Shown in pieces: positions 25,921-59,200 of a stretch of 64,000 bases of DNA. The notes beneath the pieces are model-generated. The model saw nothing but the letters and a program-made list of their open reading frames with translations, searched no databases and was not told the DNA's origin. The stretch is taken from the NCBI GenBank assembly GCA_963677745.1, contig OY782391.1:1120001-1184000 (forward strand). Direction: 5' to 3'. Every line of letters begins with the position of its first letter. Position 1 is the stretch's first letter. Position numbers and translations under genes: made by a program. The DNA is from Candidatus Altimarinota bacterium (GTDB taxonomy: Bacteria > Patescibacteriota > Gracilibacteria > UBA1369).

Positions 25921-26919
25921 CTAGAATTTTACCAGCACCTTTTCCGGACTGAAAGAGATGATTTTAAGATCGGTTCCCGCCGGCAAAACGATATCGCCGG
26001 AATTAACAACATATATTCCTTTTTGCAGGCTGGAGGTCTTGATCAATAGTTTGAGCGAGTTGCTGTCCAGAGTCGCCAGCACTTCGGGAATTCCCTCTAC
26101 GGTCACCAGAATATTTTTTGGCAGCAGCTCTTTTACCGATGAACTCAAATCATCCGCCGTTTTTGCTTCGACCATCAGTGTCTTTCGTTCCTTGCCGGAT
26201 TCCACCGGAGTGTCCGTTCCGTCAACCACGGTCCCGGAATCCGTCCCGGAAGCATTTGTATCCGTAGTGTTATTCTTTTTTCTGATTTCAATATCCGCCT
26301 GAATTACCGGAGGATCAAAACTTACCGTTTTTCCGGAAAGACTCCACTCGGCCGGAGCTTCCAGAGTTATTTTGCGGCTGAAATCGGCTGTTTCCGTGCC
26401 ATCCAAAGTAATTTTTATCGGCAGATTTTGCAGTTCGGAAATGGCACTGGCGGCCCCGCTAATATTCACGGTTTCTGTATCTATTTTCAGGCTCTTGATC
26501 TCGTAATCCTTGGCCGGAGCGCCCGTGATTTCACTTTCCAGGGTAATGTACCTGCTGGTGATGGCCTCCAGTTTAAGTTTCAGTTTGGCCGGTTCCACCG
26601 CCACAATCGCCAGTTTAACATTTTTAGTGGTGAATCCGACCGGCAGGGTATATTCCCCCTCGCCCAGTCCTTCCGCGTCCAGAAACAAATCAAAATCATT
26701 GCTGTTGGCGGTGATGGATCCGGAAGGAGTCTTATAGAGAATTTTTACCCCTTCGATCTCGCTGGCCACACTGACATTTTTTCCCATGTTAATTATTTTA
26801 ACCGGAAGATTCCCGGGAAAAACATAAACATAATTTTCCACTCCCACCACAAACATCCACAAAATAACGGCCGAAATCACAGCCAGCAGTTTGAGATGTA
26901 GATTTTTAAATATATTCAT
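25921..26919 (-). CDS. cdaR: CdaR/YbbR-like regulator of diadenylate cyclase
   Basis: N-terminal TM KLLAVISAVILWMFV, YbbR-like repeats; overlaps the cdaA stop. Confidence 0.85.
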   Translation of the reverse strand: MNIFKNLHLKLLAVISAVILWMFVVGVENYVYVFPGNLPVKIINMGKNVSVASEIEGVKILYKTPSGSITANSNDFDLFLDAEGLGEGEYTLPVGFTTKNVKLAIVAVEPAKLKLKLEAITSRYITLESEITGAPAKDYEIKSLKIDTETVNISGAASAISELQNLPIKITLDGTETADFSRKITLEAPAEWSLSGKTVSFDPPVIQADIEIRKKNNTTDTNASGTDSGTVVDGTDTPVESGKERKTLMVEAKTADDLSSSVKELLPKNILVTVEGIPEVLATLDSNSLKLLIKTSSLQKGIYVVNSGDIVLPAGTDLKIISFSPEKVLVKF

Positions 26920-27785
26920 TGGCTGTCGCGGTAAACCAAATGCTTTTCCTTCTTTTTTCTGTCTTTCGGCTCCAGGACAATTCGCAGCAGATGCTGCAGT
27001 CTGGCCGCATCGATGTCACGCTCCAGCCGGCCGTTCTTGGCAAAACTGATCGAGCCTCTTTCCTCTGAAATCACGATCACACTGGCGTCAGTGTGATCGG
27101 TCAAACCGATTGCCGCTTTGTGCCGGGTCCCATAACTCTTTTCCTTGTTGTCGAAGCTGGTCGGCAGTATGCATGCGGCAGCTTTGATCCTGCCGTTTTC
27201 CACGATCACCGCCCCGTCATGCAGGGGGCCCTTGCCGTGAAAGATCGAAATCAATAATTCCTTGCTCAGCAGGGCGTCCATTTTCACCCCGCTCTCAATA
27301 TATTCTTTCAGCGGAATACCGTGTCGGAACACAATCAGGGCTCCTTCTTTCCTTTCCGAAAGGTAGACGCAGCTGGCTACCGTCTCGGAAATCATTGCGT
27401 CCACCTGCGGGTTTTTCCCGCCGGTCAGAAAAGGCGTATTGCCGATTTTTTCCAGACCCATGCGCAGTTCCTGCTGGAACAGGATGGGAATGGAGATCAA
27501 TAAAATTGTGAAAAACCTGTCCAATAGCCAGCCTACGGCCAGCAGATTAAGTGATTTGCTGATCAGAAAAAGTATAAAAATAATGGATAGCCCCAGCAGA
27601 ACGCTTACCGACCGTGAGCCTTTCAGCATCGAAAAAATGAAATAAAAGGTCAGCGCCACAATTCCAATATCCAGAAGTACCTGCCACAGGCTCATGTCGG
27701 AATAAATCAGATTTTGCCAAAATTCCCGCGCAATATTGGCGATCTGCGATATGCCGCTGGCAATAAAACTGCTGATGGCGTCCAT
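26916..27785 (-). CDS. cdaA: diadenylate cyclase CdaA
   Basis: Three TMs, FQQELR, GALIV, PLHDGAV, GTRHKAA, VISEERG. Confidence 0.95.
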   Translation of the reverse strand: MDAISSFIASGISQIANIAREFWQNLIYSDMSLWQVLLDIGIVALTFYFIFSMLKGSRSVSVLLGLSIIFILFLISKSLNLLAVGWLLDRFFTILLISIPILFQQELRMGLEKIGNTPFLTGGKNPQVDAMISETVASCVYLSERKEGALIVFRHGIPLKEYIESGVKMDALLSKELLISIFHGKGPLHDGAVIVENGRIKAAACILPTSFDNKEKSYGTRHKAAIGLTDHTDASVIVISEERGSISFAKNGRLERDIDAARLQHLLRIVLEPKDRKKKEKHLVYRDSQ

Positions 27786-27965: not shown

Positions 27966-29066
27966 TCAGTATGATTTGAAAGCTTTTTGCAGCTTTTTTC
28001 GATTGGCCCAGGCCAGTACCAGTATAATTCCCAGGTAAAGTGTTTCAGCCGGGCCGGTTTTGGCCAATTTCTTGGGAGCATCGGCGGCCGGTTTGAGTTC
28101 CTCAGTTACGGTTGTTTCCTGAGTTTCTGCAGGTTCCAGAGAGGTGATAGGCTCATTATTCTGGGCAGTCATTGTTTCATCAATGGCACTGGTCAGAACA
28201 TTTTCAGTGGTTTCGCCGGCGGCCGTTTCAGGCGTATCAGTGCCGGTTTCGGCCGGTGTTGTCAGAGTGGGACTTCCCGTCCCTACGGTTATGGAAGCTT
28301 TAAGCGCAGGATTATAGGTGGAGTAATATTCAAAAGTGCCATCCTGGTCGAACAAATAACTGAAACTCTGTCCGCTGGTAAGTACCGGGCTGGCAAAACT
28401 TTGTCCGTTGGTGGATGAGCCGATAATAGTCTGATCTTCAGTGCTGGTATTGGTCCAGACCACAGTTGCTCCTTTATCAATTTTTACTGTCGCGGGTTCA
28501 AAGCCAAACAGGGACACGTCAACATTGACGCTGGGGCCTGTACTTTGTGCAACGGTTTCGGGGGTAGTGGAAGAAGTATCGGTACTTTTTTCAGCTACTG
28601 TGGAAGTGTCAGTGTTTGTGGCGGTTTCAGTAGAGTCCAGAGAGGCTACCCCGGCTGTTGGTGTAGTCTGATTGGTTTCGCTGTTTACAGGCGTGGAGCT
28701 GAGCAGGTCGGATTTGAGTTGTAACGGTTCCTGTACCCAGTAAGCCACATATCCGGCAATGCCGACGATAACCAGTGCGGCGATAATTTTTGTCTTGGGA
28801 ATTTTGTCTTCCGATGGTTCAGTTTCTTCCGCGACTACCGCTGCAGCTTCTTCAGCTACTGTTGTTTCTGCAGCCGGGGCTGTTTCTGTCTGCACGGCTA
28901 CCTGGTCGGCGGTTTCAGCGGTTTTATGTGAAATATTCAAGGTGGTCGCCGGTGCTGCTTCCGCTGAACGCATGGTGGCTGGTCCGGTCTGTTCAAACAG
29001 ATCCATCTGATCGGGACTTACCGGTGTTTCGGTTGTCTCTTCTGGCTTGTTTTCTAGCTCGGTCAT
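27966..29066 (-). CDS. membrane-anchored cupredoxin-like protein with C-terminal LxxTG-type sorting signal
   Basis: FEPATVKIDKGATVVWTN...FDQDGTFEYYS; LAKTGP followed by TM and RKK. Start placed after TGATATACT (-) at 29096-29104. Confidence 0.8.
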   Translation of the reverse strand: MTELENKPEETTETPVSPDQMDLFEQTGPATMRSAEAAPATTLNISHKTAETADQVAVQTETAPAAETTVAEEAAAVVAEETEPSEDKIPKTKIIAALVIVGIAGYVAYWVQEPLQLKSDLLSSTPVNSETNQTTPTAGVASLDSTETATNTDTSTVAEKSTDTSSTTPETVAQSTGPSVNVDVSLFGFEPATVKIDKGATVVWTNTSTEDQTIIGSSTNGQSFASPVLTSGQSFSYLFDQDGTFEYYSTYNPALKASITVGTGSPTLTTPAETGTDTPETAAGETTENVLTSAIDETMTAQNNEPITSLEPAETQETTVTEELKPAADAPKKLAKTGPAETLYLGIILVLAWANRKKLQKAFKSY

Positions 29067-29188
29067 AGCTTTATTGGTATTTGATAAATCTTCACAGTAT
29101 ATCACAAAAACACCCCGGGATTAATGTTCCGGAGGCCTGTGCAAGCCAAAAGGACTATACAAAAAAAAGAAATGTATTGAAACTCAAA

Positions 29189-29450
29189 ATCCCTGAGTAG
29201 CAGAATCAATTTTAGGCATCAGATTGACCAAGTCCAACGGTAACCGTTTTAAAAGTTACATGCTTTCATTTTAATTGGGAAAGCAACTTTATAAATAAAG
29301 ATTGTTTTCTTTTTAAACTGAAAAATCCTGAAATTATTTCTGTACCCAGGGAAGAGGTTGCCTTTGGTCATACAGGGTTGCCTTGAGGACTGTGTGCCAA
29401 AAAAATTTTAGGCAAAAGTCACAGTCCAAAGGCAACCTTCTCCCTGTGAT
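29189..29450 (-). ncRNA. putative structured RNA unit C (diverged third unit of the array)
   Basis: 5' CAGGGAGAAGGUU arm, internal UCCCUGGGUA, 3' UACUCAGGGA; long closing stem; shares ACUUUUAA with units A and B. Confidence 0.55.
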
Positions 29451-29478
29451 AGAAACGCTGTTTTTTAATGTTCAAAAA

Positions 29479-29843
29479 ACTCCCTAAACTAACCTCAATC
29501 CCTTAAAAGTAACTTACAACCTGGAAGATTAAATTTCCTTGATAGTCACTTTTCCTTAAGCATTGCTGTTTAAGATTAGTAATTCTCTTTAATATTCTTT
29601 TCTTTTTTATCTTGCGATAAAAATCAGATTGGAACTTAAAGGTCTGTTCCGAAACTTCTCTATCCGGCTTTTGGATAACCACCGAACTGAATATTTCAGC
29701 ATTCTGAAAACCTGGTAGATTTTCAGTAACGACTTTTAAAGTAATTTTAGCTAGTTTAGGGAGAGAGTTTACACAAAATCGTATCAGCTTGATTTTGTGA
29801 AATGTTAATTCCACTTCGTTTTATGCAAACTTTCTCCCTAGAC
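29479..29843 (-). ncRNA. putative ~365-nt structured RNA unit B
   Basis: Diverged tandem copy of 29876..30250 with compensatory changes, two GCAA tetraloops and a 15-bp closing stem. Confidence 0.75.
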
Positions 29844-29875
29844 CGGTCCTCCTTTTTTTCAAGTATCAATTTAAG

Positions 29876-30250
29876 ACCCCCTAAACCAACTGTCGCCCCT
29901 TAAAAGTAGAAAGCATCTCAGAAGCGCGAAGGATCCAAGATAGAAACTTTTCCCTGAGCATTGCTGCCCAAGACTAGTAATTCTCATTAAACTTTCTTTC
30001 TTACACTTTGTCTTGCGACAAAAGTACAAGATAAAAAATCCAAAAGTTTTCCCCAAAACCTCTTTACTCGGCCTATGGATAACCACCGAACCGATAATTT
30101 TGGCATCCCAGGAACCTGGTGGACTCCTGGAAACGGCTTTCAGGTAACTTCAGCAAGTTTAGAGGGAGAGTATGGCTTCAATCGCAGGTTTGGTTTTTAT
30201 GTTTGTTTTTAAAACCGGTTTGTTATTGAAACCAAACTTTCCCCCTAAAT
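29876..30250 (-). ncRNA. putative ~375-nt structured RNA unit A
   Basis: Same evidence as unit B; lies directly downstream of a near-consensus promoter. Confidence 0.75.
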
Positions 30251-30301
30251 CTCAATTGGTTACTTGTTAGTTTTTGTCTTTATTTCAAATATCATCATAC
30301 T

Positions 30302-30330
30302 ATGATATACCATAGATTTCACCCTGTCAA
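30302..30330 (-). promoter_or_regulatory. sigma70 promoter driving the ncRNA array
   Basis: Minus strand TTGACA-17 nt-TATCAT. Confidence 0.8.
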
Positions 30331-30370
30331 GTGTCTAATCCGAAAAAAACTGAAATAGTCCAAATATAGT

Positions 30371-30399
30371 TTGAAATCTGCATTTGTTTCAGTTAAATT
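30371..30399 (+). promoter_or_regulatory. promoter of tRNA-Phe
   Basis: TTGAAA-17 nt-TAAATT. Confidence 0.65.
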
Positions 30400-30434
30400 T
30401 ATGCCGCTCACCAATCAAAACCCACCTCAATTGT

Positions 30435-30509
30435 GCCGGGGTAGCTCAGTGGTAGAGCGAAGGACTGAAAATCCTTGCGTCGCCAGTCCGATTCTGGCCC
30501 TCGGCACCA
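30435..30509 (+). tRNA. tRNA-Phe (GAA)
   Basis: Acceptor GCCGGGG/CCTCGGC plus ACCA; D arm GCTC/GAGC; anticodon arm AAGGA-CTGAAAA-TCCTT; T arm GCCAG-TCCGATT-CTGGC. Confidence 0.96.
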
Positions 30510-30612
30510 TATACTTCGTAAAATTAACTTCAAACTGGCTGATTTAAAACGTTTGAAGTCTTTATTATGTACCGGGAAAATGGTAAAATGTTAAGATCAT
30601 TTAATTATTACC

Positions 30613-31485
30613 ATGAAGCCAATTGCCAAACTTTTTCCGGGCCAACAGACTGATGACAATTCCGGAGTCCGCAGGATCAACCGCGGAAACAAAACCATCG
30701 AAGAAACCCGGCAGGGTTATGCCGACGTCATAGAATCAATGGAACGGCATGAGTTACTGGGCCCGCTGGTTCGCGGGGGATTTCATAACGGAGTCAGGCA
30801 GGAGGGATTGTTACGCCGGCTAATTTATAAGCTAAATGCCGAGCTTTATGACCGGAGATTATTGAAAGAATCTGAATATCATAATCAGGACGCCGCACTT
30901 CGTTCTCTGGAACATATTTTTGAAACCACCATGAAGGACGTGATAGCCCTTTGGGCCAGGCTTTCCGCTCAAAAAGTTGAATGGAATGAACTTTGCGCCG
31001 TTCTGGAGGATTATTTTTATGACCTGGCCAGTCTGTTTGGAGTGGAACAGCAAATGCGCTTTTTTACACGCAACTGGTTTGATACCTATGCCCGTAATGA
31101 ACTGAATGCCAGCGCACTGGCTTCCTATCAGCAGTTGTCTTATCTTGGTGCGTCCGGCAGTGTTGAAGATCAGCAGAAAATCGCCAAGGAAATTCGGGGG
31201 AACATTACCTCAATCAATAATAAGCTCAGAAATCTTCCCATAAAACCTGAACATTACCCGGCTTTCAGCAAACTAAATCCCCAGAGCAAAGTACTGATAC
31301 AGCCCGGCAATCCCTCGTCTCCCAATCCCCATCATCTGGTGGTGAGCATGAAACACGGAAGGGGGGAAACGGCCAAAACCGAAACTTATCCTTCACCCTG
31401 GGTCGAACCGCCCTTTCTGCCCAAACCGGCCGAACAGAAAAAGTCCTGGTGGGGTAAACTTTGGGGGAAACTAACCGGTAAATAA
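30613..31485 (+). CDS. hypothetical protein with C-terminal amphipathic helix
   Basis: 290-aa ORF behind TGGTAAAAT; ends KKSWWGKLWGKLTGK. Confidence 0.8.
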   Translation: MKPIAKLFPGQQTDDNSGVRRINRGNKTIEETRQGYADVIESMERHELLGPLVRGGFHNGVRQEGLLRRLIYKLNAELYDRRLLKESEYHNQDAALRSLEHIFETTMKDVIALWARLSAQKVEWNELCAVLEDYFYDLASLFGVEQQMRFFTRNWFDTYARNELNASALASYQQLSYLGASGSVEDQQKIAKEIRGNITSINNKLRNLPIKPEHYPAFSKLNPQSKVLIQPGNPSSPNPHHLVVSMKHGRGETAKTETYPSPWVEPPFLPKPAEQKKSWWGKLWGKLTGK

Positions 31486-32392: not shown

Positions 32393-35086
32393 ATGCAAAA
32401 ATCTTTTTCCATGGTAGCCAGGCTGCTCCTGATGGGGTATTTGATCGGGATTATTCCCGCTGCCGCCATCGCCCAGCAGGCCACCATTTTTTCCGATGTC
32501 ACCACGGACACACAGTACTCCGAGGCCATCAAATATCTGAAGGACAATAATGTCGTTCAGGGCTATCCGGATGGCACCTTTGCACCGGCTACCAATATCA
32601 ACCGCGCTGAGTTTACCAAGATTCTGGTGGGTGCGGTGGCGGGCAGCGACGTAAGCGGCTCCAACTGCTTCCCCGATGTCAAAGACGAATGGTTTGCTCC
32701 CTATGTCTGTACCGCCAAGAAATTGAATCTGGTGGACGGCTATCCCGACGGGACTTTCAAACCGGCCGAACCGATCAATTTTGCCGAGGCTGCCAAGATC
32801 ATCGCCAATGCTTTCCGGATTCAGCTGGGTGCTGACGATCCTTCTGCCTGGTTCAAGAAATACATAACCGCCCTGCAGATTGAAAAAGCTATCCCGCTTT
32901 CCGTCGAATATTTTGACGAAAAAATCACCCGCGACGAGATGTCCGAAATTATCTGGCGTATCAAGGCCGATAAACAGGATCTTACCAGCCGCACTTATCA
33001 GGAATTAAGCGGCGAGGGACTGGTGACAGTCGGATCCTGCCGCGAACTGGAAGACCGCATGAAAAGTGTCATGACATCCCCCTATCCAATTTTATATGAC
33101 GCGATTCCCCTGGACGGAATGGGAGCCGTAGAAGAAGCGGTACCGGCTGCCGCGCCATCTACCAGTGATTCGAAATCTTCTTCTTATACCGGCGCGGGAG
33201 CATCCGCCGATTATTCAACCACCAATATCCAGGAGGCTGGAGTTGATGAAGCCGATGTTATCAAAAACGACGGCAAATATATTTATCTGATCAAGGGCAA
33301 TACCATCCGTATAGTAAACGCCTATCCGGCTTCCGAAATGAAAGAACTGATCAGTTTTCAATTGGGGCCCCAGGATGAATATTTCTATCCCAATGAGATG
33401 TATGTGAACGGCGATACTCTGATCGCCATGGGATCGGCCAGTATCAGCTACCCGATGCCGCTTGCCGATACGACGGTCTCCTCCGATACCGTCACCAGCG
33501 ATTACAAGATGATGCCTCCTTATTATGGCGGTTCCAAATCCAAGGTCTATATCGTCAACATTGCCGACCGGATGAAACCAAAAGTGATCAGGACTATCGA
33601 TATTGACGGCAGTTACAACACTTCCCGCCGTATTGGTGACACTCTTTATCTGGTATTGAATCAATACCCTTATTTCCCTTACTGGAAAGGCAATCAGGAA
33701 ATCGCCAATTTTGCCGATTATCTGCCCAAGATGTCCGATTCCAAGGATGATAAGGTTGTACCGGTGTCCAGTTGCGATCAAATCCGACTGATGCCGAAAC
33801 CGAAGAGTTTCAACTTCTTGATTACTGCAGCTATTCCCCTTAATGATCTGAGCAAACCGGTTTCCCGCAGTGTGATCGTCGGCAGCAGCGACAACGTCTA
33901 TTCCTCAACCAGCAATTTGTATGTTGCCTCCACCGACTGGTCGGGTCCCTACTATTACAACAACAACCCTTCCACCAAGATCTACCGATTCGCTTTGTCT
34001 GCAGGCAAACTGGAATATAAGGCCGAGGGAGTGGTCCCCGGCACTGTTCTCAACCAGTTTTCCATGGATGAGCATCGCAGTAATTTCCGCATCGCCACTA
34101 CTGAAACCAGTTATGTGATGGGAGACAGCCGCACCACCAACAATCTCTTTATCCTGGGCCCGGACATGAAAATGCTGGGGAAACTGCAGGATATTGCACC
34201 GGGAGAAAAGATCTTTTCGGTACGTTTGCTGGGAGACCGCGGCTATATGGTTACCTTCAAATATGTTGATCCGCTTTTCGCCCTGGATTTGAGCAATCCT
34301 GCCAGTCCCAAGGTTCTGGGAAAACTAAAAATACCCGGCTACAGTGATTATCTGCATCCTTATGATGAAAACCATCTGATCGGTTTCGGCAAAGATGTTG
34401 ATCCGGCCGAAATAGCCAAAGACCAGGATTTCATTTATTACACGGCGGTCAGGGGTTTCAAGATGGGTTTGTTTGACGTGACTGATGCCACCAATCCCAA
34501 AGAAATGTACAGTGAAGTGATCGGGGATCAGGGGACTTATTCCGAACTTCTGTACAATCATAAAGCCCTGCTGTTCGACAAGGAAAAGAATCTGATTGCT
34601 TTCCCCATTACTGTCACCCAGATGCCGGCCGATCAACCGCAGATCTGCAAGAACTTCACCTATTCCACCTGTCCCGACAGTTGCAACAAGATTTGCCAAT
34701 CCAAATGTACCTATGAGAACGGCATAACTATTTGCGACCAGAGCTGTGACGGCGCGAACAGCTGCCAGGAGTCAAACTATGTTTATCCCAAGACGGTTTT
34801 CGATGGAGCTTATGTCTATGGATTGGATCTGGCCACCGGCTTCAAACTCAAAGGCAAAATCACCCATCTGACCACTCAGGAACAGGCCGAATTACTGGCC
34901 AACGGTTATGGCAATTGGGAAAAAACCATCCAGAGAATTATCTATATCGGCGACACGCTCTATACCGTATCCCAGGGCGCGGTCAAAGCCAACAGTCTGG
35001 CCGACTCGCTGAGGGAACTGAAGATGATCGAATTGGCCGGAACTATCTGGAATATCTCCTATGGTGTCGAGCCGATGGTTAAATAA
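32393..35086 (+). CDS. secreted protein with SLH domains and C-terminal beta-propeller
   Basis: Signal peptide; SLH motif GYPDGTF.P...INRAE; YSTTNIQEAGVDEADVIKNDG, NQFSMDE, LKIPGYSDYLHP. Confidence 0.9.
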   Translation: MQKSFSMVARLLLMGYLIGIIPAAAIAQQATIFSDVTTDTQYSEAIKYLKDNNVVQGYPDGTFAPATNINRAEFTKILVGAVAGSDVSGSNCFPDVKDEWFAPYVCTAKKLNLVDGYPDGTFKPAEPINFAEAAKIIANAFRIQLGADDPSAWFKKYITALQIEKAIPLSVEYFDEKITRDEMSEIIWRIKADKQDLTSRTYQELSGEGLVTVGSCRELEDRMKSVMTSPYPILYDAIPLDGMGAVEEAVPAAAPSTSDSKSSSYTGAGASADYSTTNIQEAGVDEADVIKNDGKYIYLIKGNTIRIVNAYPASEMKELISFQLGPQDEYFYPNEMYVNGDTLIAMGSASISYPMPLADTTVSSDTVTSDYKMMPPYYGGSKSKVYIVNIADRMKPKVIRTIDIDGSYNTSRRIGDTLYLVLNQYPYFPYWKGNQEIANFADYLPKMSDSKDDKVVPVSSCDQIRLMPKPKSFNFLITAAIPLNDLSKPVSRSVIVGSSDNVYSSTSNLYVASTDWSGPYYYNNNPSTKIYRFALSAGKLEYKAEGVVPGTVLNQFSMDEHRSNFRIATTETSYVMGDSRTTNNLFILGPDMKMLGKLQDIAPGEKIFSVRLLGDRGYMVTFKYVDPLFALDLSNPASPKVLGKLKIPGYSDYLHPYDENHLIGFGKDVDPAEIAKDQDFIYYTAVRGFKMGLFDVTDATNPKEMYSEVIGDQGTYSELLYNHKALLFDKEKNLIAFPITVTQMPADQPQICKNFTYSTCPDSCNKICQSKCTYENGITICDQSCDGANSCQESNYVYPKTVFDGAYVYGLDLATGFKLKGKITHLTTQEQAELLANGYGNWEKTIQRIIYIGDTLYTVSQGAVKANSLADSLRELKMIELAGTIWNISYGVEPMVK

Positions 35087-58011: not shown

Positions 58012-58491
58012 ATGGCAAGCTACAGGCATCTGGCCAGAATCGCCGTCATGCAGACTTTGTTCGCTTACGAATTCCGTAACGAACTGGTAAAGCCTGATCT
58101 GGAATCGAATTGCCGGGAATTTTCTGATAAACTGACCGATTTAAGTTTCGCCCGGGAAATACTGGAGGGCGTGCTTAAGCATAAGAAGGAAATCCGGGAT
58201 ATCATCGGCAAAGAAGCCCCCGAATGGCCTTTTGAAAGAATAGCTTTGGCCGATCGCGTAATTCTGGAAATGGGCATTTATGAGATTATCTTTTCCCCGG
58301 ATGTGCCACCGGTGGTGGCCATCAACGAAGCCATCGAAATCTCCAAGGTTTTCGGAGACCTCAACAGCAGCAAATTCATCAATGGGGTGCTCAGTACCAT
58401 CATGAATAAATATCCCCACATTATTGAGGGGAAAAAATTAAAAAAAGAAAAGAAAGTTAAATCGGCTAAAAAAGACAAGCATGCTGGCTGA
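58012..58491 (+). CDS. nusB: transcription antitermination factor NusB
   Basis: RHLAR, VAINEAIEISK, FINGVL. Confidence 0.96.
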   Translation: MASYRHLARIAVMQTLFAYEFRNELVKPDLESNCREFSDKLTDLSFAREILEGVLKHKKEIRDIIGKEAPEWPFERIALADRVILEMGIYEIIFSPDVPPVVAINEAIEISKVFGDLNSSKFINGVLSTIMNKYPHIIEGKKLKKEKKVKSAKKDKHAG

Positions 58492-59200
58492 AAGATACAA
58501 AGCTTTGATCGAACAACTTGACCTGAGTTTCAATAATCTGGAACTTTTGGATTTGGCCTTTGTGCATAAATCCTATCTCAACGAGCATCGCGATCTTAAG
58601 ATTGCCCATAACGAGCGTCTGGAATTTTTGGGTGATGCCGTGCTGGAATTGATTGTCACCGATTATCTCTATAAAAAATATCCGGAGCATGAGGAAGGCG
58701 ATCTGACCAACTGGAGATCTGCTCTGGTAAAGGGCAAACATCTGGCGGAAATCGCCATCGAGCTGGAGCTGGGCGTCTATTTGTATTTGAGCAGGGGAGA
58801 GGAACGTTCCGGCGGACGGAAGAAAAATTATATTTTGGCCAATACGCTGGAAGCTTTGATTGGAGCCGTTTATCTGGATCAGGGCTATCAGGGAGCCGAT
58901 AGTTTTGCCGGTAAATTTATTCTGGGCCGGCTGGATCAGATACTGGAAAAAGGTTTGCATATAGATGCCAAATCCCGCTTTCAGGAAATTGCCCAGGAAC
59001 TTTTGGGGGTGACGCCGGATTATATTTTCATCTCGGAAACCGGACCCGATCACAACAAAAATTTCACTATGGGACTGTTTCTGGGAAAAGAAAAAATTTC
59101 CGAAGGACAGGGGTCGAGCAAACAAAAAGCCGAACAGGAGGCGGCGGTTAACGGGCTAAAAGCCAAAAACTGGGAACATATTCAGTTGACCACCGATTGA
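58481..59200 (+). CDS. rnc: ribonuclease III
   Basis: HNERLEFLGDAVL, EALIGAVYLD, dsRBD. Confidence 0.98.
   Translation: MLAERYKALIEQLDLSFNNLELLDLAFVHKSYLNEHRDLKIAHNERLEFLGDAVLELIVTDYLYKKYPEHEEGDLTNWRSALVKGKHLAEIAIELELGVYLYLSRGEERSGGRKKNYILANTLEALIGAVYLDQGYQGADSFAGKFILGRLDQILEKGLHIDAKSRFQEIAQELLGVTPDYIFISETGPDHNKNFTMGLFLGKEKISEGQGSSKQKAEQEAAVNGLKAKNWEHIQLTTD

Follow-up and report, generated by a model that had tools for sequence, protein, structure and literature searches.

The minus strand of the window (the whole 64-kb stretch of Candidatus Altimarinota bacterium contig OY782391.1 analysed here, to which all coordinates refer unless genome positions are stated) carries, between positions 29189 and 30250, an array of three tandem RNA units, A, B, and C, in a gap of ~1.3 kb that lacks a conserved open reading frame (ORF). 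Every unit contains two G-rich arms, one 5′ and one 3′, and a pyrimidine anti-arm that is able to pair with either of them. An initial reading of the DNA letters (the first-pass annotation) had claimed that the anti-arm pairs with both arms and that the arms co-vary, and comparison across genomes bears this out, with both the 5′ arm/anti-arm helix (H5) and the anti-arm/3′ arm helix (H3) conserved by compensatory changes, several of them three-way. On balance, we favour the view that the array is an rRNA-like, lineage-specific operon of stable non-coding RNAs (ncRNAs), the units of which would mature by programmed strand exchange and cleavage.

Three copies of the 5′ arm motif YAGGGRGAARGTT are present in the window, always on the minus strand (30235–30247, 29828–29840, and 29434–29446), against 0.01 copies expected by shuffling, with none of 100 shuffles reaching three copies, which confirms the description of three tandem minus-strand units sharing this motif. 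The differences previously quoted between the arms of the three units are also as stated, with arm cores (5′/anti/3′) of GGGGG/CCCUC/GGGGG in unit A, GGGAG/CUCCC/GGGAG in unit B, and CAGGGA/UCCCUG/CAGGGA in unit C, and with the anti-arm core pairing with the 5′ and the 3′ arm in all three. The distance from one 3′ arm to the next 5′ arm, given earlier as ~30 nt, measures 36 nt between A and B and 33 nt between B and C. Units A and B are paralogues (71% identity across 233 nt, E = 7.7e-25), with the similarity of unit C to them limited to the arms and the base of the 5′ hairpin. All three are strongly structured, with fold z-scores against shuffles of −4.8, −5.7, and −4.7 for A, B, and C, and none of 100, 100, and 200 shuffles respectively folding equally well. 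A further motif, ACUUUUAA, thought to be kept by all units, is indeed present in A, B, and C, the three minus-strand copies within the 1.06-kb array, one per unit, being among six in the window (3.4 expected). However, A/B-type units of homologous loci keep ACUUUUAA only in the closest genus (alignment A3, described below), and the copy in unit C belongs to a hairpin loop that is variable, so that the motif is no signature of the family.

The conservation of both helices is evident in A3, a MAFFT alignment of 25 type-2 units (those with the body type of A and B), in which all three anchors fall in the same columns in every row. For H5, 94.8% of cells are paired compared with 89.6% in shuffles, with 6 of 10 pairs changed on both sides (0/500 shuffles), and for H3 89.5% are paired compared with 79.4%, with 13 of 16 pairs, amounting to 48 cells, changed on both sides (0/500); slid controls give 42–70% paired for both helices. 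At column 123, H5 shows G-C in 23 rows and A-U in two, and H3 shows C-G in 23 rows and U-A in two (the units of genome G014; G numbers are our handles for genomes), with columns 122 and 127 displaying similar three-way behaviour. Left unguided, RNAalifold picks H3 and four body hairpins from the 25 type-2 units, with 41 of 54 pairs compensated, and many G-U pairs of this consensus would be A-C on the opposite strand. R1, a covariance model built from eight sequences of unit C's conserved hairpin domain, reaches 117 bits on the minus strand compared with 38 bits on the plus strand. The array is a real structured RNA on the minus strand.

This pattern extends beyond the type-2 units. Across 36 curated units of all types, the 7-nt core shared by the two helices pairs completely in 32 units within H5 and in 30 within H3, with three-way changes (5′/anti/3′) of U-A-U in 28 versus C-G-C in five, A-U-A in 25 versus C-G-C in three, and, at the remaining two positions, A-U-A in 22 versus G-C-G in three and G-C-G in 29 versus A-U-A in two. 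Arms swapped between these units pair worse, with none of 10,000 shuffles reaching the observed score, and within one genome self pairing exceeds cross pairing for both H5 (6.85 versus 6.28) and H3 (6.77 versus 5.94). Because the curated arms were chosen partly by complementarity, an independent set of 19 full metagenome units (18 distinct) was added and read at fixed A3 columns, with H5 found at 7/7 in all 19, H3 at 7/7 in 15, 6/7 in two, and 5/7 in two, and with new compensations such as UAGAGAG with CUCUCUA, these units also adding further instances of coupled three-way change. H3 reaches past the shared core to 16–25 bp, with duplex energies of −18 to −31 kcal/mol in 12 of 13 further units and −8.8 kcal/mol in the thirteenth (G004), which lies at a contig end.

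The two conformers are close in computed energy, with the difference between H3-forced and H5-forced folds of 32 units having a median of −2.15 kcal/mol, lying within ±3 kcal/mol in 19, and favouring H3 in 24. For units A, B, and C shortened so as to exclude the 3′ arm, the minimum-energy fold has H5 at 7/7, and when the full units are folded, H3 is held at 7/7, 6/7, and 6/7 respectively and H5 at 0/7; the folding of truncated and full units proposed by the first-pass annotation as a check, run here computationally, thus gives a change from H5 to H3 exactly upon addition of the 3′ arm. Its suggestion that a leader hairpin is displaced once the 3′ end has been made is consistent with the dual conservation, the near iso-energetic conformers, and this computed flip, with the order of events being the putative part of the claim.

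A static architecture, in which H5 and H3 are independent abutting helices and the anti-arm core stays with one arm, is in our view unlikely, albeit deserving of attention. The complementarity of the other arm would here reflect the use of the GGGAG arms as a protein or nuclease site, or H5 would be a separate hairpin RNA. In its favour, H5 has a base (GGGAGAAAGCUG / CAGCUUCCUCCC, containing a conserved A-C mismatch) whose sequence is kept across genera, lone H5-type hairpins without a body exist (the terminal hairpins of the loci and the first element of G008), and with some choices of ends the minimum-energy folds of A and B combine H5 with the distal part of H3. However, the identical seven anti-arm positions serve both arms, making H5 and H3 mutually exclusive, with the same 7 nt unable to pair both arms simultaneously, and in the three-way compensations both arms track the same anti-arm bases by Watson-Crick and wobble rules. 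Furthermore, where C has changed to U in the anti-arm, G has changed to A in the 3′ arm while the 5′ arm retains a G-U pair, and these cases follow pairing logic rather than motif identity.

For the strand-exchange reading, we propose that the promoter and a boxA-type (Nus-factor) element would start a single ~1.05-kb minus-strand transcript with three modules, each comprising the leader hairpin H5, a multi-helix body, and a 3′ arm. As RNA is made 5′ to 3′, H5 would form first, and would shield the anti-arm from wrong partners, including the near-identical arms of neighbouring units. The finished 3′ arm would nucleate just downstream of the anti-arm core and displace the 5′ arm, yielding the 16–25-bp closing helix H3, which may act as a processing stem, most likely for RNase III, and so free the closed domains of A and B as ~275-nt RNAs; in the last module, H3 and the U-tract would end transcription. 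Within this scheme we infer the pairing order, the nuclease, the antitermination, and any function of the mature RNAs.

The expression signals assumed in this scheme recur among relatives. A TTGACA-type promoter is found at the equivalent place in homologous loci, and the element AUGAUAUUUGAAA that follows it in the window matches the NusB-binding boxA-like consensus of the Bacillus subtilis rrn operons, AUGAUCUUUGAAA, at 12 of 13 positions (the Escherichia coli counterpart being UGCUCUUUAACA; both as quoted in a 2026 mBio paper, PMC13753749). The leaders of 24 genomes score 12/13 in 10, 11/13 in four, 10/13 in seven, and 8/13 in three, with at least 10/13 reached in 21 of the 24 compared with 3.7% of random 128-nt windows drawn from the array's own genome (n = 5000; at least 12 in four, at least 11 in 22, and at least 10 in 184). 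Additionally, 26 of 39 units carry UUGA(A/C) no more than 40 nt past their 3′ arm, compared with 9.7% of background 40-nt windows, with seven of the 13 misses being terminal long C units that have a U-run instead. Within the array's own genome, the spacer motif follows only five of 47 tRNAs, two of which are the tRNAs of the 16S operon, and a stretch related to the boxA-like motif occurs in the 16S leader. From these signals, the array appears to be transcribed like an rRNA operon under Nus-factor antitermination, which would help RNA polymerase through the strong helices and the U6 of unit B.

The helices and U-tracts might also be read as a terminator/antiterminator system, with H3 and the U-tract forming a long-range intrinsic terminator and H5 the antiterminator, and with the number of units transcribed, and hence the stoichiometry of the RNAs, set in this way, possibly under the control of a factor; we consider this quite improbable, more so than a static architecture. 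In every long C unit read, the 3′ arm leads directly into a U-run, the 3′ arm of unit B is followed by U6, and a boxA-like antitermination signal is present at the start of the operon and in the spacers, all of which would suit such a system. However, a U-tract following the 3′ arm is missing from most internal units, helices closing 150–300 nt are, as is generally known, poor intrinsic terminators, and the end sites of the array were not flagged by a simple terminator scan that allowed loops of 3–8 nt only.

Among 23 runs listed, eight are recorded as RNA with part of the stretch, and contigs of four metatranscriptome runs, all from one study, were mapped on 28900–30600. Unit B is represented by contigs at 29483–29757 (275 nt, one difference), 29483–29739 (no differences), and 29482–29699, and unit A by contigs at 29879–30153 (275 nt, from a relative, 23 differences), 29929–30152 (no differences), 29995–30154, and 29899–30050, and by shorter ones. 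The contigs of 257–275 nt match the extents predicted for the closed domains of A and B, with their minus-strand 3′ ends falling after UUUAGG in both units and their 5′ ends in or just past the anti-arm. Depth in the same four runs is zero at the start of the downstream coding sequence (CDS) and beyond the tRNA, which argues against plain DNA carry-over. None of their contigs covers unit C, the leader hairpins, or the spacers, an absence that carries no evidential weight. The contigs matching the closed domains of A and B fit the idea that the array is processed into several RNAs, for which the RNase III encoded by the genome is the candidate nuclease. Circularisation, offered with it, is not supported; no joints are listed for the four runs, a weak negative, as these are assembled contigs only. 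Excision and ligation of the units into circles by a self-cleaving array is scarcely probable, for whilst the tandem units are flanked by near-identical direct repeats in the form of their 5′ and 3′ arms, the Rfam ribozyme families find no match in the region or in 12 homologous loci, and the two ends of each closed domain are base-paired together, in the manner of a processed linear RNA.

A number of points weigh against an rRNA-like operon maturing by strand exchange. The choice of the 36 curated arms partly by complementarity inflates their self-versus-shuffle contrast, and related sequences can outscore column shuffles even where no constraint acts. When A and B are folded with slightly altered ends, H5 is retained at minimum energy, the energy balance therefore being very close, and the gap between the conformers lies within the error of nearest-neighbour models. 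The genome's own 16S leader fits the boxA consensus less well than the array leader does, and the need for antitermination is not obvious everywhere, because most internal units are without a U-tract. The RNA evidence consists of assembled contigs from one study, which cannot show ends, strand, or level, making the 275-nt species and their ends a weak hint. The 5′ ends of the unit A contigs lie 6 nt further in than those of unit B, and the 3′ overhang implied by contigs, which cannot define ends, is ~10 nt in A and about 2–3 nt in B, where the staggered cuts of RNase III leave 2 nt; with ~10 nt implied in A, a clean RNase III cut is therefore putative.

The array has a narrow distribution. BLAST finds it in 10 of 41 related genomes, the window's own included, and R1 finds it in 26 of 36 genomes of the same family (17 of 25 genera), with matches confined to one locus per genome except in G045. 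In that genome, the same terminal hairpin element lies at the ends of two contigs (L051 and L062), probably because the assembly broke at the array or a contig end was duplicated there. Among 151 genomes drawn from the order, R1 matches 14 of 22 family members and none of 128 genomes from 18 other families, and R2, a covariance model of the type-2 core built from 25 units, matches 15 of the 22, adding three genomes missed by R1, with one marginal match outside the family (E = 0.007); both models span only parts of the units. The array is confined to one family, with nothing convincing in the 128 genomes of 18 sister families. Scanning named genome records for an exact pattern gave 15 stretches, of which seven are titled as Candidatus Peregrinibacteria, Peribacteria, or Patescibacteria metagenome-assembled genomes, two are coding chance matches, and six bear titles of unrelated taxa and are taken as chance by title alone. 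The core pattern has 71 matches in metagenome contigs, with R2 confirming 21 of these loci, and 0 matches in viral contigs in a single exact-pattern scan, on which a phage-borne element was rejected.

The architecture of the locus is preserved across the family, with a TTGACA-type promoter, one to three long units, and a terminal element found in this order in every locus read. A divergent tRNA-Phe lies upstream wherever the upstream sequence sufficed, with a scan of 12 other loci detecting a tRNA there, on the opposite strand, in 10, and no tRNA seen upstream of the array in three loci (G022, G045, and G009). Units of body type 2, that of A and B in the window, conserve a hairpin with the tip GUCC-NCCA-GGUU and a GNRA-capped hairpin. 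Body type 1 is a distant paralogue; the type-2 profile aligns along the whole of a type-1 unit in G007 alone (E = 6.5e-13), with partial alignments in G051 and G011, and R2 gives weak matches ~430 nt upstream of the main match in three metagenome loci. As terminal element, loci have either a short conserved hairpin with a U-run or a long unit C, the latter in the genus of the window and in a small number of others. Unit number varies, with G047 having three long units before the terminal hairpin and G008 a lone leader-type hairpin directly before a type-2 unit, and the leader hairpins of both type-2 units are nearly identical in G002 and in G014, suggesting recent duplication or gene conversion.

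Known RNA families do not account for the array. At gathering thresholds, Rfam 15 detects only tRNA in the window, and at E ≤ 10 a scan of 28900–30650 and 12 homologous loci yields tRNA and chance sub-threshold matches, mostly to microRNA-precursor hairpin models, with no match to SSU, LSU, or 5S rRNA in the region or these loci. The first-pass annotation had raised the possibility that unit C is 6S-like, however RF00013 (6S; gathering score 46.4 bits) has no match at E ≤ 10 anywhere in 28900–30650, the best 6S candidate of the genome lies elsewhere, and neither unit C at minimum energy nor the consensus for its conserved domain forms a rod with a central bubble, both being branched (a hairpin domain and a closed multi-helix domain). 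Unit C and 6S RNA are alike only as strongly structured RNAs of ~250 nt, with the conserved part of C being a branched hairpin domain, and unit C is not 6S. The genome's only RF00013 match, at genome positions 602254–602414 on the minus strand, is a likely 6S RNA (41.1 bits compared with the gathering score of 46.4 bits, E = 3.5e-7).

Of the explanations considered, a diverged housekeeping RNA (6S, signal recognition particle (SRP) RNA, RNase P RNA, or tmRNA) has the least to commend it, for although the units have sizes like those of large SRP RNA or RNase P RNA and SRP RNA is undetectable in the genome, no Rfam family matches at E ≤ 10 apart from tRNA-Phe and chance matches, RNase P RNA (170.5 bits), tmRNA (105.7 bits), and the 6S candidate sit elsewhere in the genome, and the SRP proteins are also missing, so that no SRP RNA is expected. 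In the 1.34-Mb genome, a single contig estimated at 97.9% complete, neither a small nor a large bacterial SRP RNA was detected (0/36 genomes of the family), and neither an SRP54 M-domain nor an SRP54-type GTPase (Ffh, FtsY) was found; across 61 genomes of the order, PF00448 gave matches at P-loop level only. Such an absence is known in outline for the Candidate Phyla Radiation (CPR), with PMC8080830 giving two SRP subunits as absent in many CPR bacteria.

Several other identities were rejected. Protein coding finds no support, with unit ORFs of 103, 71, and 40 aa lacking a significant Pfam match, and with stop-free runs of 31–112 codons varying in frame and position among 44 homologous units, leaving no conserved ORF. 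A cis-regulatory leader of the downstream cdaA operon was rejected because the gene downstream of the array changes between genera. Within the units, a pseudoknot between a CCNCC loop and a GGUGG body stretch, judged by eye in alignment A4, shows no covariation at its middle position (A-U, G-U, C-U, C-C); a T-loop reading of GGGUUCGAUAUCC in type-1 units was dropped, the stretch belonging to H3; and a purine triplex of both G-rich arms on the anti-arm was set aside by reasoning, the wobble and compensation patterns being those of antiparallel Watson-Crick pairing. TIGR arrays appear unrelated in scale. No description of this RNA was found in the literature, with subscription journals and supplementary files outside the reach of the search.

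Table 1. Features of the array and related genes, with positions in the window.
Feature	Position	Strand	Remarks
Sigma-70-type promoter, TTGACA-17 nt-TATCAT	30302–30330	−	11/12 consensus positions
boxA-like element AUGAUAUUUGAAA	30283–30295	−	Immediately 3′ of the −10 box
Unit A (type 2)	29875–30248	−	5′ arm 30247–30235; leader hairpin H5 to ~30159
Unit A, rest		−	Anti-arm 30170–30151, then body, 3′ arm 29892–29877
Unit A, predicted closed domain	29879–30154	−	Covered by RNA-library contigs
Spacer A-B with boxA-like/UUGAAA motif	29841–29876	−	
Unit B (type 2)	29480–29842	−	5′ arm 29840–29828; anti-arm 29767–29749; body; 3′ arm 29494–29480, then U6
Unit B, predicted closed domain	29483–29757	−	Covered by RNA-library contigs
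Unit C	29186–29446	−	Conserved 5′ hairpin domain 29446–29337, including anti-arm 29360–29337
Unit C, rest		−	Variable body; 3′ arm 29205–29190; U-tract (likely operon terminator)
tRNA-Phe(GAA)	30435–30509	+	Divergent neighbour of the array
nusB	58033–58404	+	PF01029, E = 1.1e-31; predicted to recognise boxA; genome 1178033–1178404
rnc (RNase III)	58541–58930	+	PF14622, E = 2.3e-41; genome 1178541–1178930

Downstream of the array, and likewise on the minus strand, lie a Pfam-less gene of 379 aa (27966–29105), cdaA (26916–27785), and a YbbR-domain gene (25921–26919), in that order. The 379-aa gene has an apparent TGn-extended −10 element of its own, TGATATACT, and its homologues follow the array in several, although not all, genera. 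The genes nusB and rnc, which encode the two factors that matter most for how the array is proposed to be expressed and processed, are neighbours on the same strand of the window. The rRNA genes of the genome are split, with 16S at genome positions 144335–145832 (minus strand) followed by tRNA-Ala and tRNA-Ile, and 23S ~4.3 kb beyond at 136623–139636. The 23S gene has an apparent promoter of its own, and matching GGGUGUAGUA / UACUACACCC stems occur on both flanks (genome 136200–146330). Elsewhere in the window, on the plus strand at 32393–35086, lies the gene for a protein of 897 aa that combines two S-layer-homology domains with a beta-propeller domain (PF09826, E = 7.8e-163).

The array resembles rrn operons in several respects, with a strong promoter followed at once by a boxA-like element, with spacer motifs similar to those after two tRNAs of the genome's own 16S operon, with several stable RNAs per transcript, each inside a 16–25-bp long-range helix, and with nusB and rnc present in the genome. 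In contrast to rrn operons, the products of the array are not rRNA, and its closing helix uses an internal anti-arm that would first be held by a competing 5′ arm. Both antitermination and cleavage are predictions here.

A second parallel is provided by hok of plasmid R1 and aapA3 of Helicobacter pylori, for which metastable 5′ hairpins formed during transcription are described as yielding to a long-distance interaction of the ends, followed by end-processing (PMC6733600). As in these RNAs, the array shows two mutually exclusive helices sharing one strand, coupled three-way covariation, and G-rich arms sequestered by CU-rich segments. Unlike them, it has no conserved ORF and no known antisense partner, its units are large, multi-helix, and tandem, and the exchange would probably serve folding and maturation rather than the control of translation. 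Coupled covariation among three segments was reportedly used as evidence in hok-type folding by Gultyaev et al. in 1997.

Ornate bacterial ncRNAs such as OLE, GOLLD, ROOL, and raiA comprise hundreds of nucleotides with many covarying helices, occur in narrow lineages, and have no known function, with GOLLD and ROOL often adjoining tRNA genes. The array is similar to these RNAs in its size, covarying helices, narrow range, and lack of a known function, and differs in having no Rfam match, a fixed chromosomal locus, paralogous tandem units with leader hairpins, and a boxA-like start. Its size, its many covarying helices, its two old paralogues side by side, and its rRNA-like expression signals point to mature RNAs that are abundant structural or catalytic RNAs rather than regulators of neighbouring genes. 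A bolder and distinctly tentative interpretation is that the array represents a new class of large, abundant ornate RNAs, in which two ancient paralogues of ~275–330 nt and a conserved hairpin RNA of ~90 nt would be produced by an rRNA-style operon (boxA, processing stems) with hok-like three-arm exchange in an SRP-less CPR family, and would form parts of a major ribonucleoprotein or ribozyme. This may be associated with the ribosome or with translation, as the constant presence of tRNA-Phe beside the array and its rRNA-type signals for expression would suggest.

Bacteria offer few large structured RNAs that lack a known function, and each new class has so far opened new biology. The array described here occupies a single locus in one CPR family, is represented in sediment and soil metatranscriptomes, is unusually similar to an rRNA operon, and has strong comparative support. 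Natural examples of two mutually exclusive helices documented by three-way covariation are few, and the array, as one of them, makes co-transcriptional folding and the ordered maturation of an ncRNA testable in vitro without the need for culturing. Furthermore, the array suggests that boxA/Nus-type antitermination may be used in reduced genomes for stable RNAs other than rRNA.

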